A DNA stretch of 64,000 bases, from positions 9,192-73,191 of the forward strand of contig JAGOUW010000004.1 in NCBI GenBank assembly GCA_018061075.1, in the 5' to 3' direction. Positions 149-63,645 of the stretch are shown here, piece by piece. Position 1 is the first letter of the stretch, and every line of letters begins with the position of its first letter. Source of the DNA: Candidatus Levyibacteriota bacterium. GTDB taxonomy: Bacteria > Patescibacteriota > Microgenomatia > Levybacterales > UBA12049. The notes under the pieces are model-generated. The model made no database searches. It saw only the letters and a program-made list of their open reading frames with translations, and had not been told where the DNA came from. A program made the translations under genes and the position numbers.

Positions 149-176
149 ATTATATTCTCTTTTACTTAAGTGTCAA
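149..176 (-). promoter_or_regulatory. promoter, TTGACA-N16-TATAAT, 7 nt from ATG at 141
   Basis: -35 at 176-171 and -10 at 154-149, read on the - strand. Confidence 0.6.
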
Positions 177-188
177 GGCAAATTTTAT

Positions 189-217
189 TTGACAGGAAAA
201 GCTTAAAGTAGTATAAA
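189..217 (+). promoter_or_regulatory. promoter, TTGACA-N17-TATAAA, 8 nt from ATG at 226
   Basis: -35 at 189-194, -10 at 212-217. No SD. Confidence 0.6.
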
Positions 218-225
218 AGTCCACT

Positions 226-849
226 ATGGTAGACCAAGAACCCAGAAGAGGAAAAAAAGAAAAAGATCCAGTGGATTGGAAGGCTGTGGATGATGCTATA
301 GTATTAAAACTCGCAGAGCCAGATCCCGAGGAACCTAAAAGAAGAAGATACGACGCTATTGATGCATCTATGGCAGAGGCTGTAATAAGTGGAATTGATT
401 TAACAGGGCTTTCAGAAAAACAAGTTGCTCATTTGCGAAATCAAATGACTAAAAGAATTCTCGATGTAAAATTAGTTACACTCGCAAGAATTGACAACTA
501 TCCTTTTCTGTCACCAGTTGAGCGAAGTAGAATGGATGAATTCCTTTCGACTCTTCGCGGATTAAATCCAACCATGACTTTTAGATCCCCTAGCGACTAT
601 GCCACACTGTTCACTCAGCAATTAGTCCGTCCTGAACCAGAAGCTGTTACCCAAACTTATCAAGATCCCACTGCTCCGCCTCCGTTTGATCCTGATAGAC
701 CTATTACTCCTGGGAATTTTTTAGATCATGTTACTGGCCCAGTTCAACCAAGATTTGGAAGTGTCACAAGAACCTTACGGATTAAAGATTTTTCTGCGCC
801 TATCGCAAGTAATGATGTATTTGGCCAAAGAAGAGGCTACAGGGGTTAA
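226..849 (+). CDS. hypothetical protein (G+C-rich orphan, 207 aa)
   Basis: Long ORF, visibly higher G+C than background. No TM segment, signal peptide or motif I recognise. TTGACA-N17-TATAAA-N8-ATG directly upstream. Confidence 0.6.
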   Translation: MVDQEPRRGKKEKDPVDWKAVDDAIVLKLAEPDPEEPKRRRYDAIDASMAEAVISGIDLTGLSEKQVAHLRNQMTKRILDVKLVTLARIDNYPFLSPVERSRMDEFLSTLRGLNPTMTFRSPSDYATLFTQQLVRPEPEAVTQTYQDPTAPPPFDPDRPITPGNFLDHVTGPVQPRFGSVTRTLRIKDFSAPIASNDVFGQRRGYRG

Positions 850-850
850 A

Positions 851-1648
851 TTAAATTTCTGGAGCTGGCTTTTCAGGCTTAGAAAAAGTAAGCACTGTCC
901 CAATTCCTATATTACTATCCCAATCATAAACTCTTAGTCCTGACTCCCATGCCAGTCGATTAACTAAAGACATTCTTCTGCCAGCCTCAAATGGACAATC
1001 AAATAAAACAGCTTCTCCGCCAGGCTTCATAACTCTTACTATTTCTCTAAAAGCTGCAGTAAAATCATCAGCCTCTAGGTACTGAAGTAGTCTTGATGAG
1101 TAAACAATGTCCTGCGAATCGTCAGGAAGTGGGATATCTCTTGCATCAGCAAGAATGGGCGTAACGTTCCCTGGCCTACTACCCCACCCCTGAACTGCAT
1201 TTTGTAAAAAAATGTCTACATTTGTAATTGCTATACTTGGGTCTCCTGCGCCAATACCAATTGCACAAAGAGACTCATAACCTCCTCCTACCTCAAGAAC
1301 TGAAATAGCTGAATCTGCGGATTCAGTTTTATCTCTTAAAGCATGAGATAAAAATCCATTTAGAGAGTAATCTGTTTCATCAAGGTATCTATTCATGAGG
1401 AGAATAATTTCATTACTTGGAGGAATCAATCCGGTTGGCTTACCATTTCCATTAACATTAATTTTTAAGTGAGAAAAATCCGGATGCAGACTATATCCTT
1501 GGGGCACGTCTGGATTAGGAGTATGTTCCCCTACGCTTCTCGCCACAACCATATTTGATCCTTCTTCTACTTGAGCTAAAGGAACTAATATGCGCTGTTT
1601 CGGACTTCCACCATCTTGACCACGTCCATCAAATACTTCAGAAACCAT
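851..1648 (-). CDS. class I SAM-dependent methyltransferase with ~110-aa N-terminal extension
   Basis: Motif I-like VLEVGGGYE, later ADARDIPLPDDSQDIVYSS and VMKPGGEAVLFD typical of Methyltransf_11/25-type enzymes. TTGACC-N17-TATAAT-N8-ATG upstream. Confidence 0.7.
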   Translation of the reverse strand: MVSEVFDGRGQDGGSPKQRILVPLAQVEEGSNMVVARSVGEHTPNPDVPQGYSLHPDFSHLKINVNGNGKPTGLIPPSNEIILLMNRYLDETDYSLNGFLSHALRDKTESADSAISVLEVGGGYESLCAIGIGAGDPSIAITNVDIFLQNAVQGWGSRPGNVTPILADARDIPLPDDSQDIVYSSRLLQYLEADDFTAAFREIVRVMKPGGEAVLFDCPFEAGRRMSLVNRLAWESGLRVYDWDSNIGIGTVLTFSKPEKPAPEI

Positions 1649-1656
1649 AAGCGTAA

Positions 1657-1685
1657 ATTATACAATTACTATAAGACTGGGTCAA
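1657..1685 (-). promoter_or_regulatory. promoter, TTGACC-N17-TATAAT, 8 nt from ATG at 1648
   Basis: -35 at 1685-1680, -10 at 1662-1657. Confidence 0.6.
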
Positions 1686-1692: not shown

Positions 1693-2244
1693 TTAGATGC
1701 CCATGAGGTACTGAATAGTTTCGGCGGTTCTAGGAGCTAGTGCTCCTGGAATACTGTCTCTATCAAGACGCGATACATTAGGATGTAGCGCAATTGCAGC
1801 TTCATGCATTCTAAGCGCAGAAGAAAGACCAAACCATCCAATTCTATCGTGCTCATCTGGCGCTGCATTAAATGGCGTTAGATTTCTTGCATCTAAAATA
1901 TATGAATGGAGATTAATTTCCCGACTTACTATTCTTCCACTTACAATCCTAGACAAGACTGAAAGACTTTCCCTGAAAGGAAATAGTTGATTTCTTTCTA
2001 CTACAATTCCTAATTCTTCCATAGCCTCTCTTCTAGCTGTATCAACTAAATCTGCGTCAGCTGGATCTTTTCTTCCACCAAAAAAAGCCCACTGCTCTGA
2101 AAATGAGGATGTATTTCTATGTCCCAGTAAAACTTCCATTTCCCCTTCCCCCTCTTGATCTGGTCTAAGTAAAATTACTTGTGCTGCGGAAATATAAATT
2201 CTTTTTATATCTGGTTCAACTAATGACTCTAATCCTTCAATCAT
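1693..2244 (-). CDS. NUDIX hydrolase
   Basis: Nudix-box variant GGRKDPADADLVDTARREAMEELGI. TTGACT-N16-GATAAT-N8-ATG upstream. Confidence 0.8.
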   Translation of the reverse strand: MIEGLESLVEPDIKRIYISAAQVILLRPDQEGEGEMEVLLGHRNTSSFSEQWAFFGGRKDPADADLVDTARREAMEELGIVVERNQLFPFRESLSVLSRIVSGRIVSREINLHSYILDARNLTPFNAAPDEHDRIGWFGLSSALRMHEAAIALHPNVSRLDRDSIPGALAPRTAETIQYLMGI

Positions 2245-2252
2245 AAGGGGCT

Positions 2253-2280
2253 ATTATCCCAGCTTTTCAAGAAGAGTCAA
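2253..2280 (-). promoter_or_regulatory. promoter, TTGACT-N16-GATAAT, 8 nt from ATG at 2244
   Basis: -35 at 2280-2275, -10 at 2258-2253. Confidence 0.55.
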
Positions 2281-2288: not shown

Positions 2289-2459
2289 CTAGAGGCTTAG
2301 CATTTTCATTACTTCGTAAACGAAAACTCCTGGCCAAAATAGAGCTTTTATTAGACCCCAGATAGTCTCCTGAAATCCCGAAGTTACCTGAATATAATAA
2401 ATCGCGGCTCCAATTATTCCCGTACAATAAATAGCACTTAATCCTGCATTATCTTTCAT
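2289..2459 (-). CDS. small membrane protein (56 aa), below ORF-track cutoff
   Basis: ATG preceded by AAAGGAGGTG SD. Product MKDNAGLSAIYCTGIIGAAIYYIQVTSGFQETIWGLIKALFWPGVFVYEVMKMLSL has two hydrophobic segments. Lies 23 nt downstream of the preceding - strand gene. Confidence 0.45.
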   Translation of the reverse strand: MKDNAGLSAIYCTGIIGAAIYYIQVTSGFQETIWGLIKALFWPGVFVYEVMKMLSL

Positions 2460-2482
2460 TTCTTTCACCTCCTTTATTTTTA

Positions 2483-2974
2483 CTATCCTAAACTTAGGTT
2501 AACATATGTCATATTTCCTGGATCCCTAGAAGACTTAACTTTACGTCTATCATCTACTCTTTCTGTACTTAAAATTATTCTTGCTGGATCATCCCCATCA
2601 CTTGATAGAATTCTATAAACTGGTGTCTCGTGAATTGTTCTAATATTTCCACTACTCATTAAAAAAATTTCTCCAGCAACAAATTCAGATAAACCTTCTA
2701 GATGCGGTCCTGGAGCAGAATTGTTTGCAACTATAAGATCAACCCCTTTACCCTCGATTTGTCCATTTACAAATCTATCTACAACCTGACCAATTAAAGA
2801 TACTTGCGCACCATTAAAAACCACCCTGGTCTTGTCATTTATTTCTGGAATTACTGGAAGAAGCGAGATAACAGCATCTCTCTGAGAGAGAGTAAGTAGT
2901 CTTGCCATTTTCTGATATTTAGCCAATTCAGCTTGTCTATCTAAATAACCCAAATATGCTTCGATAACAGCCAT
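2483..2974 (-). CDS. hypothetical protein (163 aa, start re-called)
   Basis: ORF track starts at a TTG (3028). The internal ATG at 2974 is preceded by TTGACT-N17-TATTTT-N7, matching the window-wide leaderless geometry. No recognisable motif. Confidence 0.55.
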   Translation of the reverse strand: MAVIEAYLGYLDRQAELAKYQKMARLLTLSQRDAVISLLPVIPEINDKTRVVFNGAQVSLIGQVVDRFVNGQIEGKGVDLIVANNSAPGPHLEGLSEFVAGEIFLMSSGNIRTIHETPVYRILSSDGDDPARIILSTERVDDRRKVKSSRDPGNMTYVNLSLG

Positions 2975-2981
2975 CAAACTC

Positions 2982-3010
2982 AAAATACTCCTAAATTTAG
3001 CAGCAGTCAA
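2982..3010 (-). promoter_or_regulatory. promoter, TTGACT-N17-TATTTT, 7 nt from ATG at 2974
   Basis: -35 at 3010-3005, -10 at 2987-2982. Back-to-back with the GT2 promoter. Confidence 0.5.
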
Positions 3011-5450: not shown

Positions 5451-6283
5451 GAAATTAAAATTTTGCGTGCCTCATTACCGGGCACATTAAACAGGAGATC
5501 TAATATAGACAGGTTCGCTATAAAACCATGCTGCCTATTAAACAACTGTGGATATTCCTTACACTTCCAGTCCTGAACTTTAATAGTGATTCCGTTTTTT
5601 TCAAATAGCGAATGGTCTACATATGCTGAAACTGCAGTTCCACCACAAAAATCCTCATTTGCACCAAATTCTTTACACAGTGCAACTATTTTTTCATTTG
5701 TTTTAAGTGATTGATTCTTAAGACTTTCACTTTCTGAAGATCTTTTAACTTCTTTAAGTCTTATAATTTTATCCTTAGATAATAATTCAACCACTTTATC
5801 AATATTTAATATGTCTTTATCAAACTTTTTTACTCCCATAACTTTTGTTAGTCCCCATAAAGTAGTAGCGATATTTAAATCCGCCAGATTTCTATATCTA
5901 ATTTTAAGTAAGCTTTCAAGTTCTGGAAAAATCTCATCAAACCGTGATGCTTTTGAGTATGCGAGTTTAAAAGTCTTCAAATGATCTTCAACCCATTCAG
6001 AACTATCTTCAATCTTCGTTGAAACTATTGGCATAAAGCCTTCATGATGTACTGGAATAGATAATAAAAATCTCCCGAATGACTGTTTTACTGGAGAGTG
6101 AGCTTGATAAGATTTATCAACCCCTCCATCAGGATATTTGTGTTTTCTCACAAATTGAGCTTCATCTCTTATTGCAAAAACGTCAGTATTTAAAATTCTT
6201 GCAAAATAATGAAGTCTTGGAAAGTACTGGGGCTGAATACCGGAGTACCTCTTCGTTTTTGTTGTCTTTCCGGCCTTTGTCAT
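5447..6283 (-). CDS. WbqC-like family protein
   Basis: N-terminal IQPQYFPRLHYFARI signature typical of WbqC-like proteins. 4-nt overlap with the downstream GH18 gene. Confidence 0.6.
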   Translation of the reverse strand: MTKAGKTTKTKRYSGIQPQYFPRLHYFARILNTDVFAIRDEAQFVRKHKYPDGGVDKSYQAHSPVKQSFGRFLLSIPVHHEGFMPIVSTKIEDSSEWVEDHLKTFKLAYSKASRFDEIFPELESLLKIRYRNLADLNIATTLWGLTKVMGVKKFDKDILNIDKVVELLSKDKIIRLKEVKRSSESESLKNQSLKTNEKIVALCKEFGANEDFCGGTAVSAYVDHSLFEKNGITIKVQDWKCKEYPQLFNRQHGFIANLSILDLLFNVPGNEARKILIS

Positions 6284-6293
6284 TTGTCTATCT

Positions 6294-6323
6294 TTTATAT
6301 CTTTATTAAGGACTTGGTGTCAA
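6294..6323 (-). promoter_or_regulatory. promoter, TTGACA-N18-TATAAA, 10 nt from the WbqC-like ATG
   Basis: -35 at 6323-6318, -10 at 6299-6294. Confidence 0.45.
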
Positions 6324-8752: not shown

Positions 8753-9253
8753 TTAAGAACTAGCCTGAGCTTGTGCCTTAATATCTTCGATCGCCGCATT
8801 AAATCCAATTGGAGTTAAGCTTGATCCAGAAATTTTACCAAGATTTACTTCATCAATATTTTTTCCGACAACTTGTTCTTTATAGTTAGCGATGAAATCT
8901 GCTTGTTTTTCTTTTGATATTGGCGCCTTAGCTTGCGCTACAACTTCTACTTCTTCAATTACTCCATTTGCAAGCGTAACAGTTACATCAATTGATTCTG
9001 TTCCTGAATGATATGAATATTCTCCAGCTGCTTCGTATGTTCCATCTTTATATGTAGCTGTGGCTCCTGCTTCGCTGGTCTCCTCCATAGCTCCATTTAC
9101 AGTTTCGTCCTGTGGAGCTTCGACTACTGCTTGCTCTTTATTTTTAGTAAGAACAAATCCTCCAATAGCAACTGCTGCGATAATAACTACCACCGCAATT
9201 CCTATCATGATCATGTTTTTGTTCATACCAGTTTTTTGTGTTTCTTCTTCCAT
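8753..9253 (-). CDS. membrane-anchored FMN-binding domain protein (RnfG/NqrC-like)
   Basis: N-terminal TM anchor, YKDGTYEAAGEY start of the FMN_bind domain, and candidate flavinylation motif GKISGSSLT. GGAGGTG SD before the ATG. Confidence 0.8.
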   Translation of the reverse strand: MEEETQKTGMNKNMIMIGIAVVVIIAAVAIGGFVLTKNKEQAVVEAPQDETVNGAMEETSEAGATATYKDGTYEAAGEYSYHSGTESIDVTVTLANGVIEEVEVVAQAKAPISKEKQADFIANYKEQVVGKNIDEVNLGKISGSSLTPIGFNAAIEDIKAQAQASS

Positions 9254-9311
9254 TTATTCACCTCCTATCTCTATTTTAGATTAGATTAACAACCTTTAAA
9301 TCAGTTGAATT

Positions 9312-9324: not shown

Positions 9325-10431
9325 TTAATTTAAATATTTTTTATAAAAGTCTACTGTCTTATCCATAGCCTCGGTAAAAGCACTCCCTGTAAAATTATGT
9401 CCCCCGCTTTGATATTCATTTAATTCGTGAGGGATTGTTGTTTTATTTAGAATTTCATTAAAATTTCTGCTATATCTTATATCTACTACTGAGTCATCCA
9501 CTGTATGATTAAGTGAAATAGCGCCAGTTATTCCATCTAAATAATTCGTAACTGGCACCATTTTCCAGAAACTTGAATTAGGATCAAATGTGCCATATTT
9601 CTCAAACATTTCATTTCGTTTTTTTCGACTAGGTGAGTCTTCACTTGGAGGCTGATAACTGTTATCCTCGATGCTAAATTCAGAGAAATCAGAATATGTG
9701 TAAACAGCTCCTCCCCAAATCGCAATTGCGGGTATATCAGGTTTTGCACCCAGCGCACGAGAGACAACATTTCCTGCCATAGAATGCCCCCATAATCCAA
9801 TCTTACTCGGATTTACGAACTCATAATTCTCAAGCGCTGAATATGCGCTTAAAACATCAACAACATAATCAGAAGAATAATATGCACCTCCCGGATCTCC
9901 TTCACTTTGACCGTGCCCCCTTAGATCAATTTTAAAAACTACAAATCCATTTCGGGCTAGATAATCAACGTACGAAGAGTAATTGCTAAAGGTCTGATAA
10001 TTCGCAGGGGGTATATATCCATGAACAAAAATAATTGCTGGCCAACCACCCTCAGGCTGTTTACCCGTTGGAATTGTTAACTGAGCAAAAATAGTATTTC
10101 CATCAGATTCATAACTTGCTAGATTTGAAGCATAATCTCCATTTCTAGAATTTTCCTCTATTACCGATAACTCACTCACATACTTCCTACTCCTCAAATA
10201 TGGAATCGTAAGCTCCTCGAATGGATAAGGAGTTGGCGTAGGAACTACTGACGATTTTACATTTGATATTTTTTGAGCTGAACCACCCTTTGAAATAACC
10301 GAATAAAGTCCACCAAAAACCAAAGCATTTATTCCAATTAATGCTCCTAATAATAAAATTATTTTCCTTCTTTTCTGGGTTGGAGTTAAAGTTGGGATTT
10401 CTGAAAGCTGGGGCTGCGCTTTTTCTTCCAT
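9325..10431 (-). CDS. membrane-anchored alpha/beta hydrolase (S9/dienelactone-hydrolase-like serine hydrolase)
   Basis: N-terminal TM. Nucleophile elbow GLWGHSMAG, Asp in TVDDSVV, His in SGGHNF. Paralog of 16917-17954. Confidence 0.75.
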   Translation of the reverse strand: MEEKAQPQLSEIPTLTPTQKRRKIILLLGALIGINALVFGGLYSVISKGGSAQKISNVKSSVVPTPTPYPFEELTIPYLRSRKYVSELSVIEENSRNGDYASNLASYESDGNTIFAQLTIPTGKQPEGGWPAIIFVHGYIPPANYQTFSNYSSYVDYLARNGFVVFKIDLRGHGQSEGDPGGAYYSSDYVVDVLSAYSALENYEFVNPSKIGLWGHSMAGNVVSRALGAKPDIPAIAIWGGAVYTYSDFSEFSIEDNSYQPPSEDSPSRKKRNEMFEKYGTFDPNSSFWKMVPVTNYLDGITGAISLNHTVDDSVVDIRYSRNFNEILNKTTIPHELNEYQSGGHNFTGSAFTEAMDKTVDFYKKYLN

Positions 10432-10455
10432 GAAATAAAATTATACCAAAGTTCT

Positions 10456-13724: not shown

Positions 13725-13730
13725 AGATGA

Positions 13731-13736
13731 AGTATA
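13731..13736 (-). promoter_or_regulatory. -10 box TATACT 6 nt from the MFS ATG
   Basis: Seen in the 40-nt divergent spacer 13725-13764. Confidence 0.4.
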
Positions 13737-13758: not shown

Positions 13759-13764
13759 GTATTT

Positions 13765-51791: not shown

Positions 51792-51798
51792 TATTAAT

Positions 51799-51827
51799 AG
51801 TCTATGTTTGTACTTCTAATTTGTCAA
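51799..51827 (-). promoter_or_regulatory. gnd promoter, TTGACA-N17-TAGACT, 7 nt from the ATG
   Basis: -35 at 51827-51822, -10 at 51804-51799. Confidence 0.55.
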
Positions 51828-51849
51828 CGATAACTGATATATTAGACAG

Positions 51850-52713: not shown

Positions 52714-52729
52714 TTGTTAAAATCAAACT

Positions 52730-53724: not shown

Positions 53725-55151
53725 TTTTTTCCATCCTGCTCTATTAGTGCATTTCCTTCTTCAGGACCCCAAGAACCTGATGCATACTTAGAGATATTTT
53801 TTTCATTCTCCCATGTTTTCAGAATATTGTCTAGAAGTTTCCAGGAATTTTGTATCTCATCAGATCGGGAAAATAAAATCTGATCACCTGCAAAAATATC
53901 TAGAAGTATTTTTTCATATGCATCAAGTCCAGTAGTTCCAAAATCATCTTTATAATTAAATTTCATATTTACACTCCCCAATTTTAGTTTTGCTCCTGGT
54001 TGCTTAGCTATCAAACGAAGAGTAATTCCTTCATCAGGCTGAATTCTAAAAGTTAAAACATTTCCAATTTCAGGGCATCCATATTCTTTGAAAAGCAAAT
54101 GACAAGTCTGAATAAAAACCACGGAAATAGTTATTACTTCCTTTTCCATTCTTTTACCAGATCTAATATAAAATGGTACTCCCTGGAATCTTGGAGTATT
54201 AACAAAAAGCTTCATCGCGACATATGTCTCTGTATCAGACCCTTTTTCAACTTCTTCCTCATTTTCATAATCATCATATTGACCTCTCACTACATTTTTA
54301 TTTGCTAGTGTCACAGCTCTAGTTACTTTGGCTCTTTCATTTCTTACATCTTCCTTAGTAAAACTTCTTGGTTGCTCCATAGCTACCGAGGAAATAAGCT
54401 GCATAATGTGGTTCTGAACTACATCCCTAAGCATTCCTACTCCATCAAAAAAATTCCCTCTATTCTCAATTCCCTCTTTTTCTGCCCAAGTTATCTGAAC
54501 ATGATCTATATTTTTATTATTCCAAACAGGTTCAAAAATACTATTCGCAAATCTAAAAGCCAGCATATTCTGAACTGTTTCTTTTCCCAAATAATGATCT
54601 ACTCTAAAAATCTGTTTTTCGTCGAAAATTTTTGAAAGTTTTTCTTCAAGCATTTTCGCTGTCTCGGCATCTTTTCCAAAAGGCTTTTCTATAACTACCC
54701 TAGTCCATTTATTACTGCCTTGCCCACAACCTTCTGAAAGTTTTGTCGAAACCAATTTATCTAAAATGTCCGAATAATGCTCTGGAGGAGTTGCAAGATA
54801 AAAAAATCTAGTTATACATGCGCCAACCTTAGCATCTAATTTATTTAAATGCTTTATGAGACTATCATAGCCAGATTCACTTTCAAAAGTTCCCTTTTCG
54901 TAATGAAGGTGCTCTGAAAACTCCTTCCACCCTTCTTGCTTAGTTAAATCGTCAAAAGAATCCCTAAATTCCTCATCAGTATATCCGCGCCTTGAAAATC
55001 CTACAATAAAAAATTCGGGAGGAAGCATTTTTTTATTAAAAAGTGAAAGAAGTCCGGGGATTAATTTATGATGAGTTAGATCTCCTGTGGCTCCAAATAT
55101 TATTAGAACAAAAGGACTTTTAAGTTCTTGGAATATTTCAGGGCTATCCAT
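53712..55151 (-). CDS. zwf: glucose-6-phosphate dehydrogenase
   Basis: IFGATGDLTHHKL, RVDHYLGKE and EKP motifs. Confidence 0.9.
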   Translation of the reverse strand: MDSPEIFQELKSPFVLIIFGATGDLTHHKLIPGLLSLFNKKMLPPEFFIVGFSRRGYTDEEFRDSFDDLTKQEGWKEFSEHLHYEKGTFESESGYDSLIKHLNKLDAKVGACITRFFYLATPPEHYSDILDKLVSTKLSEGCGQGSNKWTRVVIEKPFGKDAETAKMLEEKLSKIFDEKQIFRVDHYLGKETVQNMLAFRFANSIFEPVWNNKNIDHVQITWAEKEGIENRGNFFDGVGMLRDVVQNHIMQLISSVAMEQPRSFTKEDVRNERAKVTRAVTLANKNVVRGQYDDYENEEEVEKGSDTETYVAMKLFVNTPRFQGVPFYIRSGKRMEKEVITISVVFIQTCHLLFKEYGCPEIGNVLTFRIQPDEGITLRLIAKQPGAKLKLGSVNMKFNYKDDFGTTGLDAYEKILLDIFAGDQILFSRSDEIQNSWKLLDNILKTWENEKNISKYASGSWGPEEGNALIEQDGKKWIK

Positions 55152-55157
55152 TCGATC

Positions 55158-55186
55158 ATTATATGTCTTGACACCAAAAACTTCAA
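55158..55186 (-). promoter_or_regulatory. zwf promoter, TTGAAG-N17-TATAAT, 6 nt from the ATG
   Basis: -35 at 55186-55181, -10 at 55163-55158. Physically interleaved with the + strand promoter at 55168-55196. Confidence 0.6.
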
Positions 55187-55196
55187 AGAGTATATT
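55168..55196 (+). promoter_or_regulatory. promoter, TTGACA-N17-TATATT, 8 nt from ATG at 55205
   Basis: -35 at 55168-55173, -10 at 55191-55196. Confidence 0.6.
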
Positions 55197-55204
55197 GCGA
55201 ATCT

Positions 55205-55603
55205 ATGGCAGGACCAACATTAGCTGAAAGACAAGGGTTAGCTCCCCAAGAACCAAGACTTGATGGAGGCGCAAGAAAGTCTGCTGTCCAGGAAATTAAT
55301 GACGCAGTTGCCGCGCGCGCTGGAATAACTCAAGAACAAAGAGCCGGATATTTTACAGGAAAAGACGGATTTGAATTTGACGGAAGAAGAGGGATTGATC
55401 TTACCAGAGTTACCTTACCCGGAGCCCTAGAGGATGGTAGTCGTTATATTATAAGAACGTTTTATAGTGGAAAGGGATTTAATGAACCAGCTTTTGAAGT
55501 TATTTATCCAGCAAATTTTAAAAATCCTGGCACGTCTACCCAGACAGCACTTGACCAAGCAAGAAGCTTACTTAATCCTCCCAAACCATCAAATCAACCT
55601 TGA
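55205..55603 (+). CDS. hypothetical protein (G+C-rich orphan, 132 aa)
   Basis: No recognisable motif. TTGACA-N17-TATATT-N8-ATG upstream. Confidence 0.55.
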   Translation: MAGPTLAERQGLAPQEPRLDGGARKSAVQEINDAVAARAGITQEQRAGYFTGKDGFEFDGRRGIDLTRVTLPGALEDGSRYIIRTFYSGKGFNEPAFEVIYPANFKNPGTSTQTALDQARSLLNPPKPSNQP

Positions 55604-55628
55604 CAGCCAAAGCATTAAAGCGTATATT
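55600..55628 (+). promoter_or_regulatory. promoter, TTGACA-N17-TATATT, 8 nt from ATG at 55637
   Basis: -35 at 55600-55605 (overlaps the TGA of the upstream orphan), -10 at 55623-55628. Confidence 0.6.
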
Positions 55629-55636
55629 ACCCCATT

Positions 55637-56437
55637 ATGCTACCAGATAGAACCCCAGGCGGAGGAGCTACACCAACAGACGCCATTCCAGCGCGTATTA
55701 CAAATCGTGAAGCAAATATAACAACACTTGATAGGATTATGGGATTTGTAGTTGCGGAGTCCACCAACTTAGGGGGACGACCAGATTCCACATTGAGAAT
55801 ATCAGCTGGACCAGATACTTATTGGACTATTCAAGTACAAAAAGAGCTACTTGGACTTGGTGAAGATAAAAGTATTACTGCAGAACTTCATTCAAAAGCA
55901 GAAGAGGGATTACCAATTGAGTCAATACGCGCTGATGTTATTCAGATGTTTGGCACCAGAGTCGGAGGAATTCACTTAAATTTAAAGACAGGAGAAAGAA
56001 CTTGGGATGAAAACGCAGACGTAAGTAAAATTGCGCAATTGGTTGATGAATACTCAACACAAAGCCAAGAAGCTACTGAGAAAGCAGTAAAAGATGCAGC
56101 AGATTTAGCAAGAGCAGAGCTCCATGAAATGACTGGAATCCATAACGACAAATGGGCAATTGAAGTAAAACCTGATGCTGACTATGTAACAATATGGGAA
56201 ACAAGAGATAGGGCTACTGTAAGACTAATTGTCGCCTCCCCTGCTACTGTGGAATTACCAGACGGAACTCCAGCACGACTTGCAAGAATTACAGTTCAAG
56301 ACCTAGAAAAAGGAACTATAGTTAATCAAGGTCGAGCTCCAATTAGAGATCTGAAAGAGGCAATGGATTCAATTTTCCCAGATAGAGCAGCTATTCACGA
56401 TGAAATAAATAGAGCTCCAGATAATACGCCCGCTTAA
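55637..56437 (+). CDS. hypothetical protein (G+C-rich orphan, 266 aa)
   Basis: No recognisable motif. TTGACA-N17-TATATT-N8-ATG upstream, with the -35 overlapping the stop codon of the preceding orphan. Confidence 0.55.
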   Translation: MLPDRTPGGGATPTDAIPARITNREANITTLDRIMGFVVAESTNLGGRPDSTLRISAGPDTYWTIQVQKELLGLGEDKSITAELHSKAEEGLPIESIRADVIQMFGTRVGGIHLNLKTGERTWDENADVSKIAQLVDEYSTQSQEATEKAVKDAADLARAELHEMTGIHNDKWAIEVKPDADYVTIWETRDRATVRLIVASPATVELPDGTPARLARITVQDLEKGTIVNQGRAPIRDLKEAMDSIFPDRAAIHDEINRAPDNTPA

Positions 56438-56440: not shown

Positions 56441-57190
56441 TTAAACAATCTGATCCGTTATGAGTATGGTTTTAGAGGCTATTTCGGGTTTTAAATAAAA
56501 TTTGGCAGGAAATTTTTCTATCTCCTCTTGTTCTCCGTTAAACTTAAACATCTGATTTAGAATTTCTCTTTTATCCTGACCTAACACCAAAACTATAATC
56601 AAATCTAAAACACTGATTGCATGATAATTCATCGTAATTCGTTGTCCGTATTCTGGAGCGTCATAAAAAGATACTAGTGCACTTCCATCCTCTATCATCT
56701 TTTTAGAAATTTCCGGGATGGCTGGAATTCCAGCCGTATGACCGTCTTCTCCTAGGCCCATAATTCCTACACTTTTTGGAAAATATTTAAGTATAAACCT
56801 AAGTGCTTCATCATACTGCAAAGCAGTATTCTCCAAACTTTCATCACTTTGTAAAATCGAATAAAATCTTAAATTTGAACTTTCAAAGTAATCTAAAAGC
56901 CCAGTTTCTTTCATCATGAGCTCATTACTTTTTTTGTGATTTTTTTCACCATATCTTTCATCTACTTGTCCAACTGCTCCAACCTTCAATTTTCTCTCTG
57001 CTGCAATATATTCATAAAGTTTTTTAGGAGTATTTCCACCAGAAAGAAAAAGTGTAGTTTTTAAATCACAATATTTCTCTAGAATTTCTGAAATAGTTTC
57101 ATTTGCAGACTGCGCTGTTGGAGATTCAATAACTAAAATATTATCTTTATTCTTGAAATGATTAAGCCCTAATAGCGTCGATCTATCCAT
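56441..57190 (-). CDS. pgl: 6-phosphogluconolactonase
   Basis: LSGGNTPKKLY and GLGEDGHTAG motifs of the SugarP_isomerase/Pgl family. Start re-called to MDRSTLLGL (TATACT-N6-ATG). Confidence 0.8.
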   Translation of the reverse strand: MDRSTLLGLNHFKNKDNILVIESPTAQSANETISEILEKYCDLKTTLFLSGGNTPKKLYEYIAAERKLKVGAVGQVDERYGEKNHKKSNELMMKETGLLDYFESSNLRFYSILQSDESLENTALQYDEALRFILKYFPKSVGIMGLGEDGHTAGIPAIPEISKKMIEDGSALVSFYDAPEYGQRITMNYHAISVLDLIIVLVLGQDKREILNQMFKFNGEQEEIEKFPAKFYLKPEIASKTILITDQIV

Positions 57191-57196
57191 GGCATA

Positions 57197-57202
57197 AGTA
57201 TA
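57197..57202 (-). promoter_or_regulatory. -10 box TATACT 6 nt from the pgl ATG (57190)
   Basis: Reverse complement of agtata at 57197-57202. Confidence 0.4.
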
Positions 57203-57235
57203 ACATTTGCATTTAAAATTTAAACACACAAAGAC

Positions 57236-57264
57236 TTGACAATAGACCTATAATATTATATCAT
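57236..57264 (+). promoter_or_regulatory. promoter, TTGACA-N17-TATCAT, 13 nt from the CE4 ATG
   Basis: -35 at 57236-57241, -10 at 57259-57264. Confidence 0.4.
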
Positions 57265-57277
57265 TCACATTCTAAAT

Positions 57278-58312
57278 ATGGCAGGACACGAAACACCACA
57301 GCCTAGAATTGAACAACCGGCAAATCCGGAAAGAAGAGCTTTTCTTAGAAGAGCTGGCGAAGTCGCGGTTGCGACAACTGTGGCTGCTGCTACACATAAC
57401 TTATGGCTACCACACACTGCTTTAGGCGCACAAAGAGAATCTAGCTTAGTAAATCCACAAGGAGAACCCATAAATCCACTTGATAGATCTCAGGCAATTA
57501 GAGACTTAAGTGCTGTTGAAGAAGCTTCTCGAGAAGCTAATGGAAGAACACTTCCTAATAGAACTCTGAGAACTCCTAAACCTGAAAGAAGAATCGCAGC
57601 TGAAGCTTCAAATCCACTTAAACCAGGAATGATATTCAATCAGGGAGATCCTTCACAAAGAGTAATTTATTTAACAATGGACGATGGATATGATCAAGAT
57701 AGACCAGATGGTTCCACTGTTCAGGGAGAATTAATGTTTAAAGCAGCTCTAGATGTAGCTAAAAATAATGGAGTAAAAATGACATTCTTACCAACTGGAG
57801 ATGTTTTAGCAAATAACCCTGACATGAGACCAATCGTAAGAAGAGCAAAAGCTGAAGGCCATGGTTTTGGTCTTCATACTTATTCACACACTTCCCTACC
57901 AGCCTTAACAACTGCAGAGATAGAAAGAGAAGCAGTCAGAAATCATAGAGAGCTTCAAAAAGCCCTTGGAGCACAATACAACGCTAAATTCTTAAGACCA
58001 CCTTTTGGAGATGGTGGATATGAAGGAGACTTTGATCCCGAATTAGTTCTAGCTCTTAAAGAATTAGGTCTGGCTGGAGCAATGTGGACAGGTGACACAC
58101 AAGGATATAATTATTTCCCAAATGAAGATCAAGCAACAGTTGATCAAATGGTAGAAAACGTTACGCCTTTATTTAACGGAGAAATAATTCTTATGCACGG
58201 ACTCCCAAATGATATAAAAACAATGAAGAGAATAGTAAGCTTAGGTAAATCTCAAGGTTTTCAGTTCAAATCTCTTAATTCTCTACCTGCTTCCCCTCAA
58301 CTTGGGCTTTAA
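57278..58312 (+). CDS. polysaccharide deacetylase (CE4) with twin-arginine signal peptide
   Basis: N-terminal [10 protein letters not shown] followed by [14 protein letters not shown]. NodB motifs LTMDDGY and HTYSHTSL. Confidence 0.8.
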
Positions 58313-58722: not shown

Positions 58723-59844
58723 CTATTGAGGTAAAATTGATTGTCCTGCGATGATTCTTATAATGTCTTTATAGGAGACTAGAGCTAAGAAGCTTAACAA
58801 TAAAACCAAACCAACTAAGTGAGCATATGCTTCAAACTTAGCATTAACTTTTTTTCTTGTTACAGCTTCTATAAGAATAAATAATAGTCTCCCTCCATCA
58901 AGCGCTGGGATTGGTAGTACGTTTAGGACTGCTAGGCTCAAACTTAGTGTGTAGACTAATGCTAGAACCGCAGCAGGACCAACTTTCACAAATTCTCCAG
59001 TAAGCTGCGCCATTCCTATCGGACCTGCCACACCCTGAGGAACAGTAAATCTGGTTATGATTTCAGTCACAACCATCTTAAATCCTATGACTACTTGCCA
59101 TGAATCTTTAGTAGCTTGCTTAGTGCCTTCGATAAGACTCTGTGGGAATGGATACTTTCTGATATCTACACTCTGAGAAATTGCAATTCCCATAGGCCCT
59201 TCGCCTTCTGGAAACTCTTTCCTAGGAGTAACTTTAATAACTTTGGTTTCTCTTTCTTGCCCTGAGCTTACCGAACGGGTAACTGTAATACTTAATTCTT
59301 CGCCCAAATTTTTTCTAGCTTCAGCTACTAAGGTTTGAGTATCTTTAATTTCTGTACTTCCAATTTTTTGAATCACATCTCCTTTTTTAAGACCTGCTGT
59401 TTCGGCAGGTGAACCTTTAGAAATTTCAGTTAGGGTTACTGTAGTCCCTGGAGTAGGAATTCCATCAGTCGTAAAAAGATATGTCACAATAGCTACTGCG
59501 AGAATAAAGTTCATGGTAACTCCTGCAATAATTACTAGAACTCTTTGATAAATTGGTTTTGCAAAAAAAGCGCGATCAAGATCCTTCGTAACTTTTTTGC
59601 CTTTACTTATTTTCCCAGCTCCAGCCTCATCTTCTCCGTAAAGCTTTACAAATCCGCCAATAGGCAGAAGATTTATGGAGTAAAGTGTCTCCCCTATTTT
59701 CTTTCCCCATACGCGCGGAGGAAATCCAAATCCGAATTCTTCAACTTTTATCCCAAACTTTCTTGCGACCAGATAATGACCTAGCTCGTGAATTAGAACT
59801 AGAACTGAAAGCATTACTACGAAGACAACTATTGTGAGGATCAT
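58723..59844 (-). CDS. rseP: RIP metalloprotease RseP (site-2 protease)
   Basis: HELGHYLVA zinc motif, PDZ domain (GLKKGDVI), NxxPxxxLDGG motif NVLPIPALDGG. Confidence 0.85.
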   Translation of the reverse strand: MILTIVVFVVMLSVLVLIHELGHYLVARKFGIKVEEFGFGFPPRVWGKKIGETLYSINLLPIGGFVKLYGEDEAGAGKISKGKKVTKDLDRAFFAKPIYQRVLVIIAGVTMNFILAVAIVTYLFTTDGIPTPGTTVTLTEISKGSPAETAGLKKGDVIQKIGSTEIKDTQTLVAEARKNLGEELSITVTRSVSSGQERETKVIKVTPRKEFPEGEGPMGIAISQSVDIRKYPFPQSLIEGTKQATKDSWQVVIGFKMVVTEIITRFTVPQGVAGPIGMAQLTGEFVKVGPAAVLALVYTLSLSLAVLNVLPIPALDGGRLLFILIEAVTRKKVNAKFEAYAHLVGLVLLLSFLALVSYKDIIRIIAGQSILPQ

Positions 59845-59851
59845 TTAATAA

Positions 59852-59860
59852 AGTATACCA
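59852..59860 (-). promoter_or_regulatory. extended -10 (TGGTATACT) 7 nt from the rseP ATG
   Basis: Reverse complement of agtatacca at 59852-59860. Confidence 0.4.
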
Positions 59861-59871
59861 AAAATCAGAGG

Positions 59872-60423
59872 TTAAATCTGCATTAATTCTTCTTCTTTTT
59901 TCTTTCCCAATGCATCAATTTCCGCGACAAAGTCATCTGTAGCCTTTTGAATTTCCTTTTCAAGTCGCTCGTTTTCATCTTCTGGTAAATCTTCTTTTTT
60001 TAAATCATTTAGAGCTTCGTGTCTTTGCTGACGAAGCATGACTCTGCCATTTTCCAATTTTTGACTCATAAGATGAATAAGCTCTTGTCTTCTCTCTTCT
60101 GAAAGAGGCGGAATACTAATTCTAAGAATTTGACCATCAGAAGATGGATTTAGTCCAGCACCTGACTCCATTATTCCTTTTCTTATATCTTCAATAATTG
60201 AGGCATCAAATGGAGTTAGCACTAAAGTCTGCGCATCCTGAGCATTAACTGTGGCTACTTCCATCACTCGAAGCTTTGTTGTGCCGTTATACACAGAAAC
60301 TACTATATTTTCTACAAGCGAAGGGGCTGCCTTTCCAGTTCTGATGGTAGCGATATCAGCTCGAAGAATATCAAGAGCTTTTCTCATGTTTTCTCTTGTA
60401 TCTGAAATGAGATTGGGGTTCAT
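59872..60423 (-). CDS. frr: ribosome recycling factor
   Basis: RTGKAAPSLVENI, IPPLSEERRQEL and LKK..LPEDE motifs. Confidence 0.9.
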   Translation of the reverse strand: MNPNLISDTRENMRKALDILRADIATIRTGKAAPSLVENIVVSVYNGTTKLRVMEVATVNAQDAQTLVLTPFDASIIEDIRKGIMESGAGLNPSSDGQILRISIPPLSEERRQELIHLMSQKLENGRVMLRQQRHEALNDLKKEDLPEDENERLEKEIQKATDDFVAEIDALGKKKEEELMQI

Positions 60424-60429
60424 AGTTTT

Positions 60430-60435
60430 ATTATA
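60430..60435 (-). promoter_or_regulatory. -10 box TATAAT 6 nt from the frr ATG
   Basis: Reverse complement of attata at 60430-60435. The spacer and -35 region are occupied by the 22-bp palindrome. Confidence 0.4.
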
Positions 60436-60443
60436 AAGTATTG

Positions 60444-60465
60444 CATCATATATCGATATATGATG
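60444..60465. repeat. 22-bp perfect palindrome CATCATATATCGATATATGATG (copy 2)
   Basis: Read directly, between the tsf stop (60468) and the frr start (60423). Confidence 0.6.
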
Positions 60466-61825: not shown

Positions 61826-61894
61826 ATTTCTTTGCTCTTAAACCGCCATTCAGATCGAAGATATCTCCAGAGCAAATATCTGAATGTGAGTGAT
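61826..61894 (-). promoter_or_regulatory. rpsB 5' leader with pseudoknot potential covering the ribosome-binding region
   Basis: On the mRNA, stem CAUUCAGAU/AUCUGAAUG (61886-61878 with 61855-61847). The loop segment UUUGCUCU (61876-61869) is complementary to AGAGCAAA (61838-61831), which ends 5 nt before the AUG. Confidence 0.45.
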
Positions 61895-61900
61895 TGAGGT

Positions 61901-61929
61901 ATTATACAATTTCAGGCTGAATTTTGCAA
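61901..61929 (-). promoter_or_regulatory. rpsB promoter, TTGCAA-N17-TATAAT
   Basis: -35 at 61929-61924 (inside the 3' end of the upstream orphan), -10 at 61906-61901. Confidence 0.55.
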
Positions 61930-62268
61930 CGGTGCTTCTGTGTTATGTCCTCCCTTATGAAGAATGTTGCCAAAGAATTCTCTCCATGCAGGCTGCTGTA
62001 AATTTCTGATAACAACCTCTCTAATTGGAAACGGCCGTTCCTCTCCAATCGAAACCACCAATCTGTGAGTTACTTCAAGATGACTTCTATCATAACGAAG
62101 AGGAATTTCTACGCCTTCAAGTAATGGCACTTCTGGAACATGAGGAACTGATTGTCTAAATGATACTAATGTTTTTGCTCGTTCAGGAAGATTATTATAC
62201 CTAGGCACTCTAAGTCTGTGAATTCTACCAACTCCATCCCAACTACGTTCTTTACTTATGCTTGCCAT
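61912..62268 (-). CDS. hypothetical protein (G+C-rich orphan, 118 aa)
   Basis: ORF between glyA and rpsB with no recognisable motif. Only a weak -10-like GAGAAT 7 nt before the ATG. Confidence 0.45.
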   Translation of the reverse strand: MASISKERSWDGVGRIHRLRVPRYNNLPERAKTLVSFRQSVPHVPEVPLLEGVEIPLRYDRSHLEVTHRLVVSIGEERPFPIREVVIRNLQQPAWREFFGNILHKGGHNTEAPLQNSA

Positions 62269-62284
62269 ATTCGTAATTCTCTAT

Positions 62285-63604
62285 TTAGGGCAAAGGGTAC
62301 TTTTTCATTAGAGTTTTTACTTCCTGTCCAATTCCTAAAAGCTTTTTATTTTTCCAAACTTTCGCTTTATAATCTTTCCAATATGCTTTTCTTTCTTCTT
62401 TATCAGTTGGAAGATTTTTCCCAACCACTTCTTCAACTGCATCGTTCATCCACTTCGCGACTTTTAACATATCTCTTTCTTTAAGACCTCGAGTAGTAAT
62501 CGCTGGTGTTCCCAAACGAATTCCTGCTGGATAAAAAGGTGGACTTGGATCAAATGGTACTCCATTTTTGTTTAGAACTATTCCTGCTACTTCTAAGGCA
62601 ATTGCAGCCGTTGCACCGTCTACATTTTTATTTCTAAGATCAATTAAAATTAAATGATTATCAGATCCTCCTGACACTAAATCAAAACCATAACCATTTA
62701 ATGCTTTTGCAAGAGCTTTTGAATTAGCCACAACCTGCTCAGAATACTTTTTAAAGCTTGCTGTTGCTGCTTCTTTAAGCGCTACTGCTATGGCTGCAGT
62801 TTGGTTATCATGTGGTCCACCCTGCAAACCTGGAATAATCGCAGAATCAATCTTTTTTCCCAACTCTGGGTCTTTTTTAAGTCCTTTATTTGTTACCATA
62901 ATTATAGCCCCTCTAGGCCCTCTTAAAGTCTTGTGGGTTGTAGTTGTAACGATATGTGCATGATTTACTGGTGAAGGATGGACTCCCGCAGCAACGAGTC
63001 CCGCAATATGAGAAATATCTGCCATTAAAAATGCCCCAACCTTATCGGCTACTTCTGCGAATTTCTTAAAATCAATTGTTCTAGGATATGCTGTAAAACC
63101 GCAAATTATAAGTTTTGGTTTTTCTTTTTTTGCCTGTTTTAAAATTGCATCAAAATCAAATTTTCCACTTTTATCTAATTCATATTGAACTGCTCTAAAA
63201 AAAGTTGAGGAAAAAGTTTTTGGTGCCCCGTGTGTTAAGTGTCCACCAAAGGGCAAACTCAAACCCATTAAGGTTTCCCCAGGTTTTAGAACTGCCATTT
63301 GTACTGCAGAATTTGCAGGTGCTCCAGAGAGAGCTTGAACATTTGCGAACGGAACTCCGAATAATTTCTTTGCGCGGTCGATCGCCAACTGCTCTACTTC
63401 ATCCGCAACTGCGTTACCCTGATAGTATCTTTTCTTAGGATATCCTTCAGAATATTTATTATTTAGAACTGTTCCTAAAGCTTCTAAAACTGCTGATGAT
63501 GTGTAATTTTCTGAGGGGATCATTTCGAGGACTGAAATCTGTCTTTGTTCTTCATCTTTAACTAAATTGAAAATTTGAGGGTCAGTTTTCTTTAAATTTG
63601 TCAT
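62285..63604 (-). CDS. glyA: serine hydroxymethyltransferase
   Basis: MIPSENYTS, YSEGYPKKRYY and PLP site TTTTHKTLRGPRG. ATG at 63604 preferred over TTG at 63625. Confidence 0.9.
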   Translation of the reverse strand: MTNLKKTDPQIFNLVKDEEQRQISVLEMIPSENYTSSAVLEALGTVLNNKYSEGYPKKRYYQGNAVADEVEQLAIDRAKKLFGVPFANVQALSGAPANSAVQMAVLKPGETLMGLSLPFGGHLTHGAPKTFSSTFFRAVQYELDKSGKFDFDAILKQAKKEKPKLIICGFTAYPRTIDFKKFAEVADKVGAFLMADISHIAGLVAAGVHPSPVNHAHIVTTTTHKTLRGPRGAIIMVTNKGLKKDPELGKKIDSAIIPGLQGGPHDNQTAAIAVALKEAATASFKKYSEQVVANSKALAKALNGYGFDLVSGGSDNHLILIDLRNKNVDGATAAIALEVAGIVLNKNGVPFDPSPPFYPAGIRLGTPAITTRGLKERDMLKVAKWMNDAVEEVVGKNLPTDKEERKAYWKDYKAKVWKNKKLLGIGQEVKTLMKKYPLP

Positions 63605-63616
63605 CAAACTAAAGCG

Positions 63617-63645
63617 AGTATACAAACGAATTTATCCCATTGCAA
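63617..63645 (-). promoter_or_regulatory. glyA promoter, TTGCAA-N17-TATACT, 12 nt from the ATG
   Basis: -35 at 63645-63640, -10 at 63622-63617. Confidence 0.5.

Follow-up and report, generated by a model that had tools for sequence, protein, structure and literature searches.

Promoter-like hexamers at a fixed distance from start codons point to leaderless mRNAs in Levybacteria

Introduction

Where, relative to the start codons of its genes, does a tightly packed bacterial genome place its promoters, and what does this placement imply for the initiation of translation? The question is raised by a stretch of 64,000 nucleotides (nt) of Candidatus Levyibacteriota bacterium (assembly GCA_018061075.1, contig JAGOUW010000004.1, positions 9,192 to 73,191), referred to here as the window. 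A first-pass annotation of this DNA had listed 21 gene starts at which a -10-like hexamer ends 6–8 nt before the ATG, and had proposed that the messenger RNAs (mRNAs) concerned are leaderless and coexist with genes led by a Shine-Dalgarno (SD) site. The hexamers are found here to peak sharply at this distance, both in the window and in related genomes, and their sequence context supports their interpretation as sigma-70-type promoter elements, which would place the start of transcription at, or very close to, the start codon.

Initiation on leaderless mRNAs is an established alternative to the SD route, known mainly from the Actinobacteria and Deinococcus-Thermus of high guanine-cytosine (GC) content, Mycoplasma, and the archaea. 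The window has 35% GC and approximately 73 tightly packed genes, mostly on the minus strand, and would be an unusual member of the leaderless type, on account of its GC content and its place in a lineage of the Candidate Phyla Radiation (CPR; Levybacteria, Microgenomates) that uses genetic code 11.

Materials and Methods

To avoid circularity, an unbiased set was formed from the start of the longest open reading frame (ORF) of each gene, without any re-calling (68 genes in the window). A hexamer was counted when TANNNT ended 6, 7, or 8 nt before the start codon (a gap of 6–8), and a -35 box when at least four of six positions matched TTGACA. A start-agnostic estimate considered any ATG or GTG within the first 30 codons, corrected by internal windows.

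The relatives were sampled around zwf and purK. A search of the GTDB species genomes with the zwf protein provided 80 loci (1.23 Mb, 1334 genes), all from CPR/Patescibacteria and mostly labelled Candidatus Levybacteria or Levyibacteriota, with identities of up to 97%, and a scan of metagenomes with purK provided seven loci. The upstream geometry of orthologues was compared for the window genes located at 43.7–64 kb, while a tblastn search of the genes at 1–43 kb against the zwf-centred loci recovered no orthologues besides cysS.

Results

Position of the hexamer relative to the start codon

In the unbiased set of the window, TANNNT was found at a gap of 6–8 in 26 of the 68 genes, against a local upstream background of approximately 0.105 (binomial p = 1.8e-9). 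The profile of offsets has a sharp peak, with 14, 8, and 6 hexamers at gaps of 6, 7, and 8 nt, respectively, where approximately two per offset would be expected from all ATGs and one to two from internal in-frame ATGs, and neither of these control sets has a peak at a gap of 6–8. A scan of -10 enrichment against distance from the start, akin to the one proposed as a check on the earlier claim, recovered the same peak in the window and in the 80 related loci. In the relatives, TANNNT lies at gaps of 6, 7, and 8 nt in 13.6%, 7.6%, and 5.7% of the genes, compared with approximately 3.5% at most neighbouring offsets and 1% at internal ATGs. Altogether, 346 of the 1334 genes carry a hexamer at a gap of 6–8 (p = 8e-57), and each identity bin shows the signal, in 25–32% of its genes. 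When the start-agnostic estimate is applied to the first genes of transcription units, the layout is found in 54% of those in the window and 36% of those in the relatives, both of which are lower bounds, because hexamers of the GATAAT type were excluded.

At all 21 of the starts listed originally, the ATG is indeed preceded by a -10-like hexamer, with a gap of 6, 7, or 8 nt. The hexamer is TANNNT in 19 of them, GATAAT at 2244, and TATAAA at 226, which is the weakest case, lacking the conserved final T. These sites are real, but their number was an undercount, given that at least eight more genes and one upstream ORF fit the same layout. In 50 kb of Escherichia coli K-12 processed by the same pipeline, only two of 42 starts fit, and an SD core precedes 24 of the 42, whereas a 50-kb stretch of a Deinococcus radiodurans plasmid yielded four of 42 starts at gaps of 6–8 and six at gaps of 6–9, numbers too small for calibration.

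A pattern of this type might arise as an artefact of composition or method, through AT-rich spacers, the in-frame TAA or TAG that precedes a longest ORF, or the circular re-calling of starts. A genome of 35% GC lends itself to such an effect, relaxed promoter matches are no more common than in shuffled sequences (see the Discussion), and in-frame stops do raise gaps 0, 3, and 9 in the offset profile. The peak, however, declines from 6 to 7 to 8 rather than standing at 3 or 12, and it is present at the unbiased starts and absent from internal ATGs. Its co-occurrence with a -35 box at 17 nt, its dependence on operon position, and its gene-by-gene conservation, which are described below, also contradict an artefact, to which hardly any credence can be given.

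Promoter elements and genomic context

With the hexamer as the anchor of the alignment, a TTGACA-like box peaks at a spacer of 17 nt, in 35% of the cases in the window and 22% in the relatives, compared with approximately 5% at other spacers between 8 and 29 nt (p = 4e-25 for the excess at 17 nt). The TGn of an extended -10 element, with TG at positions -3/-2 of the hexamer, is found in 23–27% of the cases, an enrichment of approximately four- to five-fold, and TGnTATACT recurs among orthologues. The earlier statement that most of the 21 starts have a TTGACA-like -35 box agrees with these data, given that a match of at least four in six lies 16–18 nt upstream in 15 of them. The TGn extension is present in four (2244, 13724, 57190, and 59844), and the starts 13765, 33952, 33988, and 60423 have neither element. 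The promoters that had been quoted as examples (55168, 55600, 1685, zwf, gnd, and purK) are exact to the letter, and the identities of zwf, gnd, and purK were confirmed.

The frequency of the hexamer depends on the space available upstream. It is found in 5% of the genes that overlap their upstream neighbour, and in 21%, 31%, 36%, and 43% of those with same-strand spacers of 0–10, 11–25, 26–40, and 41–60 nt, respectively, reaching 55% at divergent spacers of 41–60 nt. It also depends on the start codon, being present before 31% of ATG starts and 9% of TTG starts, the latter at chance level (p = 4e-13). This bias fits promoters placed against the start codon, because RNA polymerase prefers a purine at +1 and leaderless initiation needs a 5'-terminal AUG or GUG. 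At the modal gap of 6 nt, the A of the ATG falls on the canonical +1. An SD core is found in 1–4% of the genes with the hexamer, compared with 14–17% of the others.

The hexamer might nevertheless be a non-SD ribosome-binding or translation-enhancing element of leadered mRNAs, similar to the group B motif of the GeneMarkS-2 classification, with transcription starting further upstream. It occupies the position of a ribosome-binding site, in genomes where the use of SD sites is very low (a GGAG/GAGG core at 10.9% of starts and 12.9% of internal ATGs, with a weak hump 6–16 nt upstream), and it is found in about a quarter of the close-packed genes. The group B motif, however, precedes all genes, including those internal to operons (PMC6028130), whereas the frequency here falls to background in overlapping genes. 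A ribosome-binding element would also leave unexplained the -35 partner at exactly 17 nt and the TGn extension, as well as the avoidance of TTG starts, and spacers of 26–60 nt are too short to hold another promoter upstream, all of which makes this alternative highly improbable. The -35 and TGn partners, the location at the heads of transcription units, the exclusion of SD sites and TTG starts, and the conservation in orthologues thus support the earlier interpretation of the hexamers as putative sigma-70-type promoter elements, rather than ribosome-binding sites, from which a leaderless state would follow.

Conservation in orthologues and choice of the start codon

The orthologous proteins, with identities of 50–90%, align from their first residue onward, an ATG or GTG being present at the matching position, and the conservation of the sequence begins exactly at the promoter-adjacent start codon. 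Upstream, the TATACT, TATAAT, or TAGACT remains 6–8 nt from the start, in contrast to the linker and the remainder of the spacer, both of which diverge. Among the orthologues of genes with the hexamer, the geometry is retained by 19 of 22 at identities of at least 80% and by 71 of 143 at 50–80%, compared with four of 86 for genes that lack it (p = 5e-14); for rpsB, the count is zero of 47. In the spacer of 53 nt between zwf and the gene starting at 55205, as aligned in eight genomes (alignment A1), most of the invariant columns belong to the four promoter hexamers or directly flank them, and the purK orthologues from metagenomes keep TTGACA-N16-TAAAAT-N6-ATG.

The starts themselves have been supported by other means. 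Public contigs carry independent gene calls with the same starts at 57190, 59844, 60423, 55151, 55205, and 55637, and Pfam/NCBIfam domains begin within a few residues of the starts of zwf, gnd, purK, frr, and others. Five of the 21 starts listed originally had been re-called by means of the promoter geometry itself, and at least six starts in the window are placed too far upstream by the longest ORF. Among the re-called starts, 57190 is backed by orthologues and by a gene caller, and 33952 by the DUF2207 orthologue L086, which has TATAAT-N6-GTG and a short N-terminus and therefore supports it, but 2974 is ambiguous, being rivalled by a TTG at 3028 with GGAGG-N8. A look-up of the exact zwf and frr proteins for transcript-derived contigs that end at the AUG returned multi-gene DNA contigs only, those with frr coming from Logan and NCBI.

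It is conceivable that the promoters are real, but that the adjacent ATG is not the start of translation, in which case the true start would lie downstream, the mRNAs would be leadered, and the annotated N-termini over-extended. All the starts are derived from sequence, some of them with the help of the geometry, and start 2974 has a competing TTG with an SD site. Set against this are the alignment of the orthologues from residue 1, with conservation setting in at that very codon, the choice of the same starts by independent gene callers, the onset of the protein domains near them, and the lack of an SD site or second motif downstream, and this explanation appears quite unlikely.

Shine-Dalgarno sites and stop/start overlap

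The claim that two modes of initiation coexist stands in so far as both a leaderless-type layout and SD sites were observed, but SD-led genes are a small minority (five or six of approximately 73 in the window, and roughly 5–10% in the relatives) and a third mode is more common than they are. This is the overlap of stop and start codons (ATGA and similar), which is found in approximately 15 genes of the window, mostly without an SD site; SD sites are present in 28% of overlapping genes. In the purine operon, for example, the inner genes are joined mostly by ATGA overlaps of 4 nt that have no SD site.

Five SD-led genes had been named. Four of them (2459, 9253, 32223, and 45875) hold, with GGAGGTG located 5–12 nt from the ATG, but the fifth, 35573, does not, given that its GGAGGG abuts the ATG (a gap of 0) and therefore cannot act as an SD site. 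Two of these genes, 9253 and 32223, have a TATAAT further upstream, and therefore real leaders.

Feature coordinates, additional starts, and short leaders

In addition to the purine operon, the window contains the oxidative pentose-phosphate genes zwf, pgl, and gnd, as well as dnaX-ybaB-recR, prs, rpsU-ybeY, rpsB-tsf-frr, glyA, cysS, and ddl. The promoters and starts are compiled in Table 1, together with the eight additional starts of leaderless layout and six promoters with short leaders (gaps of 10–13 nt). Weaker additional starts of leaderless layout are found at 7858, 28642, 45230, and 62268. At glyA, the TTG of the longest ORF (63625) adjoins the -10 hexamer on its upstream side, and is therefore not the start of this gene.

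Table 1. Promoters, start codons, and related features of the window (positions of the window; aa, amino acids).
Feature	Coordinates	Strand	Layout and remarks
Start 141 (gene runs off window)	139..176	-	TTGACA-N16-TATAAT-N7-ATG
Start 226	189..228	+	TTGACA-N17-TATAAA-N8-ATG; weak -10
Start 1648 (methyltransferase)	1646..1685	-	TTGACC-N17-TATAAT-N8-ATG
Start 2244 (NUDIX)	2242..2280	-	TTGACT-N16-GATAAT-N8-ATG
Start 2974, re-called	2972..3010	-	TTGACT-N17-TATTTT-N7-ATG; ambiguous
Start 11061	11059..11098	-	TTGCCC-N18-TAAAAT-N7-ATG; within divergent gene starting at 11062
Start 13724 (MFS transporter)	13722..13758	-	Extended -10, TGtTATACT-N6-ATG
Start 13765 (74-aa DUF167 gene)	13731..13767	+	TAAAAT-N6-ATG; no -35
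Start 21721, re-called (102-aa ORF, purQ/purM)	21719..21757	-	Internal promoter TTGTAA-N17-TATAAT-N7-ATG, in 3' end of purQ
Start 31738 (purK, head of purine operon)	31736..31772	-	TTGACA-N16-TAAAAT-N6-ATG; identical in orthologues L084, L085
Start 33952, re-called (DUF2207)	33950..33988	-	TATAAT-N6-ATG
Start 33988, re-called (endo/exonuclease-phosphatase)	33952..33990	+	TATAAT-N6-ATG; overlaps divergent 33952 promoter
Start 41225	41223..41262	-	TTGATT-N17-TATAAT-N8-ATG
Start 48095	48093..48130	-	TTGATT-N17-TAAAAT-N6-ATG; relatives TAGAAT-N6-ATG
Start 51791 (gnd)	51789..51827	-	TTGACA-N17-TAGACT-N7-ATG; orthologues retain TAGACT
Start 55151 (zwf)	55149..55186	-	TTGAAG-N17-TATAAT-N6-ATG; hexamers invariant in 8 genomes
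Start 55205 (132 aa)	55168..55207	+	TTGACA-N17-TATATT-N8-ATG; interleaved with zwf promoter in 53-nt spacer
Start 55637 (266 aa)	55600..55639	+	TTGACA-N17-TATATT-N8-ATG; fills 33-nt spacer
Start 57190, re-called (pgl)	57188..57224	-	TGtTATACT-N6-ATG; supported by orthologues and by two independent gene calls (249 aa)
Start 59844 (M50 protease)	59842..59880	-	Extended -10, TGgTATACT-N7-ATG
Start 60423 (frr)	60421..60458	-	TATAAT-N6-ATG
Additional start 10431 (hydrolase)	10429..10469	-	TGgTATAAT-N8-ATG
Additional start 16878, GTG (HlyD-type, head of ABC exporter operon)	16876..16914	-	TGcTACTAT-N7-GTG
Additional start 37760	37758..37796	-	TTGACT-N17-TAGTCT-N7-ATG
Additional start 40493, GTG (cysS)	40491..40529	-	TAAAAT-N6-GTG
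Additional start 47409	47407..47444	-	TATACT-N6-ATG; kept in 30/43 orthologues of 50-80% identity
Additional start 49142	49107..49144	+	TTGACA-N16-TAAACT-N7-ATG; conserved in orthologues
Additional start 51850 (EamA transporter)	51814..51852	+	TGaTATATT-N6-ATG; divergent from gnd
Additional start 52730 (HD domain)	52695..52732	+	TGtTAAAAT-N6-ATG
Short leader, start 6283 (WbqC)	6281..6323	-	TTGACA-N18-TATAAA-N10-ATG
Short leader, start 17954	17952..17995	-	TTGATA-N17-TATAAT-N12-ATG
Short leader, start 38839	38799..38841	+	TTGTCA-N17-TATATT-N11-ATG
Short leader, start 48209 (ddl)	48169..48211	+	TGgTAAAAT-N12-ATG
Short leader, start 57278 (polysaccharide deacetylase)	57236..57280	+	TTGACA-N17-TATCAT-N13-ATG
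Short leader, start 63604 (glyA)	63602..63645	-	TTGCAA-N17-TATACT-N12-ATG
Start 35573 (GSDH)	35537..35575	+	Fits TTCAAA-N17-TAAGAT-N7-ATG; ambiguous
SD-led start 2459	2457..2472	-	GGAGGTG-N6-ATG
SD-led start 9253	9251..9265	-	GGAGGTG-N5-ATG; TATAAT ~47 nt upstream
SD-led start 32223 (DUF1761)	32221..32237	-	GGAGGTG-N7-ATG; TATAAT ~38 nt upstream
SD-led start 45875 (rpsU, bS21)	45873..45894	-	GGAGGTG-N12-ATG
Operon-internal SD, start 37068	37066..37083	-	GGAGGT-N9-ATG; start overlaps upstream stop
Purine operon purK-purE-(NUDIX)purC-purF-purN-purD-purL-purQ-ORF-purM	20319..31738	-	One leaderless head

Two further arrangements of starts were observed. Between positions 50814 and 50899 on the minus strand, a GTG at 50863 sits 7 nt after TGtTATACT and opens an upstream ORF of 16 codons (MIHSTIAQDHIEFIEI), whose TGA overlaps the ATG at 50816 (ATATGA) of a class II aminoacyl-tRNA synthetase. 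The relative L073 retains this ORF, with two of its three substitutions being synonymous, while L003, L004, L007, and L008 are without the 47-nt insert, and their synthetase starts 6–8 nt after TATACT. The ORF at 50863 is possibly both leaderless and coupled to the synthetase gene. At 11059–11064, the starts of two divergent genes adjoin each other (CATATG), leaving no spacer; the gene at 11062 has only a weak TATTTT at a gap of 9, and the promoter of 11061 falls inside the coding sequence of 11062.

Other elements of the window and its relatives

The rpsB gene is among the few with a long leader (61826–61929, minus strand), its TTGCAA-N17-TATAAT ending at 61901, approximately 68 nt before the ATG. 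This leader is nearly identical in L073 and L004, has a TTGCTCT...AGAGCAA stem, and includes, approximately 15 nt from the ATG, a GGCGG/GGAGG element also found in distant relatives. It had no Rfam match, its fold is no more stable than those of shuffled sequences (z = -0.9), and it could represent an S2 autoregulatory leader. The dnaX-ybaB spacer (43831–43871, minus strand) contains a GC-rich element, GGAGGCCCGCCTCC, followed by CGTCAGTTTGAAACTGAC..CGGCGAG, and a similar arrangement, ccgcctNcgtca...tgac..cggcgag, is found in the rpsB leaders of the relatives L005, L037, L053, and L069. The first hairpin would sequester a GGAGG.

The interval between the DUF1761 gene and purK contains a palindrome (31766–31796), TTGTCAAC-CCCGATTAAATCGGG-GTTGA. 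The CCCGATnnnATCGGG hairpin has approximately 14 sites in 1.29 Mb of Levybacteria DNA, often fused to a TTGACA -35 box on one or both sides, and the 13 sites outside the window are in L004, L005, L013, L021, L022, L027, L028, L033, L053, L058, L069, L070, and L073. This hairpin might function as an operator or as a terminator lacking a T-tract, or it might be a small repeated element. In L005, L022, L027, L034, L043, and L077, the spacers upstream of orthologues contain odd TAG-rich simple repeats (for example, agctactagcgactagcaactagtggctaatgactaattgctagttgc and ttagaaattagtaattagaaatt), which are absent from the window.

Within the purine operon, purC has a fused N-terminal NUDIX domain (485 aa, 28646–30103, minus strand), a fusion shared by L084 and L089, and not by L086, L087, or L088, and PurL (934 aa, 22514–25318, minus strand) has an extension of approximately 180 residues ahead of the region covered by the PurL model. 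A search of the whole window against Rfam at the gathering threshold recovered no tRNA or other family, and a search of 43.5–62.4 kb at E <= 1 recovered a single match, at chance level. At 44–64 kb, hairpins resembling intrinsic terminators show no excess (14, compared with 13.3 in shuffles).

Discussion

What is observed directly is the motif: its geometry and statistics, how it varies with context, and how far it is conserved. The likely explanation is that, in Levybacteria, sigma-70-type promoters are set directly against the start codons and give rise to leaderless mRNAs, the position of the transcription start and the loading of ribosomes being the steps that we infer. Two forms of promoter would be involved, TTGACA-N17-TAnnnT and the extended -10 element TGnTATACT, with the -10 ending 6 (the mode), 7, or 8 nt before an ATG or GTG. 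RNA polymerase would start at the A or G of the start codon, or within 1–2 nt of it, and ribosomes would recognise the resulting mRNAs by the AUG at their 5' end, with no SD pairing. This layout is used by about half of the heads of transcription units in the window, and at least a third of those in the related genomes, with spacers often shrunk to a bare promoter (26–60 nt) or to two interleaved divergent promoters. The downstream genes of operons are linked mostly by stop/start overlap (ATGA), and a minority of genes have real leaders with a strong GGAGGTG.

A number of observations weigh against this explanation. The -35 box is weak or absent at roughly half of the sites, and the approximately 25% of close-packed genes that have the hexamer would require promoters within the upstream coding sequence. 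A pyrimidine at -1, considered as a signature of the transcription start, does not discriminate, being found in 80–85% of the genes at gaps of 6 and 8, 63% at a gap of 7, and 74% of the other genes. The weak sites 226, 45230, 62268, 7858, and 28642 may be fortuitous, transcription starts located 2–5 nt from the AUG may also be compatible with the motif data, and the longest-ORF starts are imperfect, so the fractions given here are estimates. Lastly, a relaxed promoter scan of 44–64 kb recovered 58 sites, compared with 57.8 in shuffled sequences, which is chance level; the raw number of promoter-like sites is therefore uninformative in AT-rich DNA, and only their position relative to the starts is non-random. 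Five of the 16 best sites of the scan end 6–8 nt before a gene start, where approximately 0.06 would be expected by our own estimate, with approximately 25 starts per 20 kb.

The promoter-adjacent layout would extend leaderless organisation to a very large and almost uncultured radiation with unusual, reduced ribosomes. Gene finders centred on the SD site are likely to call the wrong start for a substantial share of CPR genes, and the compact cassettes of promoter plus start (36–40 nt) may be of use for the genetic tools now under development for the Patescibacteria. The window also indicates that genome streamlining can leave a spacer with nothing more than one promoter, or two interleaved divergent ones.

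The ribosomes of the CPR have a short bS1 (3–4 domains) and have lost uL30 and often bL9, while the anti-SD sequence has been lost only in some Parcubacteria, and leaderless initiation is not discussed in that survey of CPR ribosomes (PMC9297842). It is possible, although doubtful at present, that initiation independent of the SD site is the default in Levybacteria, and perhaps in much of the CPR, through leaderless heads and stop/start overlap, with the SD site serving a few percent of the genes. If true, this default would accompany the reduced ribosome, with its short bS1 and its lack of uL30 and, in Microgenomates, of bL9 (PMC9297842), the CPR would be the first low-GC lineage of standard code to be of the leaderless type, and a data point would be gained for leaderless initiation as an ancestral state, or as a trait shared by the lineages related to the Terrabacteria.

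Comparison with Known Leaderless Systems

In the open-access literature, leaderless initiation in the Candidate Phyla Radiation, Patescibacteria, Saccharibacteria, or Parcubacteria was found only as incidental mentions, and an existing report is possible. The kind of system is already known, as the leaderless group C of GeneMarkS-2, whereas its presence in this lineage seems to be new. No peak of TANNNT was found at gaps of 20–30 in the window or the relatives, although the archaeal-type layout (group D) has its promoter box approximately 26 nt upstream of leaderless starts, and the TTGACA-like -35 boxes at a spacing of 17 nt are those of bacterial sigma-70 promoters.

The Bacteroidetes-type group B resembles the window in its AT-rich signal near the start codon and low use of SD sites, but its motif is not a promoter, and also precedes the inner genes of operons (PMC6028130). 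In the present data, the hexamer is found in 5% of overlapping genes, compared with 36–55% of those with promoter-sized spacers.

The Mycoplasma that read code 4 are similar in their small, reduced, AT-rich genomes, with 30–60% of the transcripts predicted to be leaderless (MetaGeneMark-2 preprint). They are, however, Mollicutes that read TGA as tryptophan, whereas the window belongs to the CPR and uses TGA as a stop codon, as in its ATGA overlaps.

In Deinococcus deserti, the majority of the mapped mRNAs are leaderless, with the -10 element placed immediately before the start codon (de Groot et al. 2014, as cited in PMC6028130). The D. radiodurans control is comparable in its clustering of TANNNT at gaps of 6–11. 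Deinococcus differs in being a high-GC member of another phylum, with experimental support from transcription start sites and proteogenomics.

The closest likeness is to group C, in which a Pribnow box lies 6–8 nt from where the first genes of operons begin and 25–50% of the operons are leaderless (Lomsadze et al. 2018, PMC6028130), and which is typical of the Actinobacteria (90%) and Deinococcus-Thermus (97%) (PMC6028130). Among group C genomes that use genetic code 11, nearly all are of high GC, those of low GC being the code-4 Mycoplasma (MetaGeneMark-2 preprint). As in Mycobacterium tuberculosis and Streptomyces, for example, TANNNT stands 6–8 nt before the first genes, and the share of leaderless heads, at approximately 54% in the window and 36% in the relatives, is comparable with the predicted 25–50%. 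Group C genomes use SD sites elsewhere, and a few of the remaining genes of the window may do so too. The window differs from this group in its 35% GC and its place in the CPR, in the fact that the SD site is barely enriched overall, and in its inner genes, which are joined mostly by the ATGA overlap.

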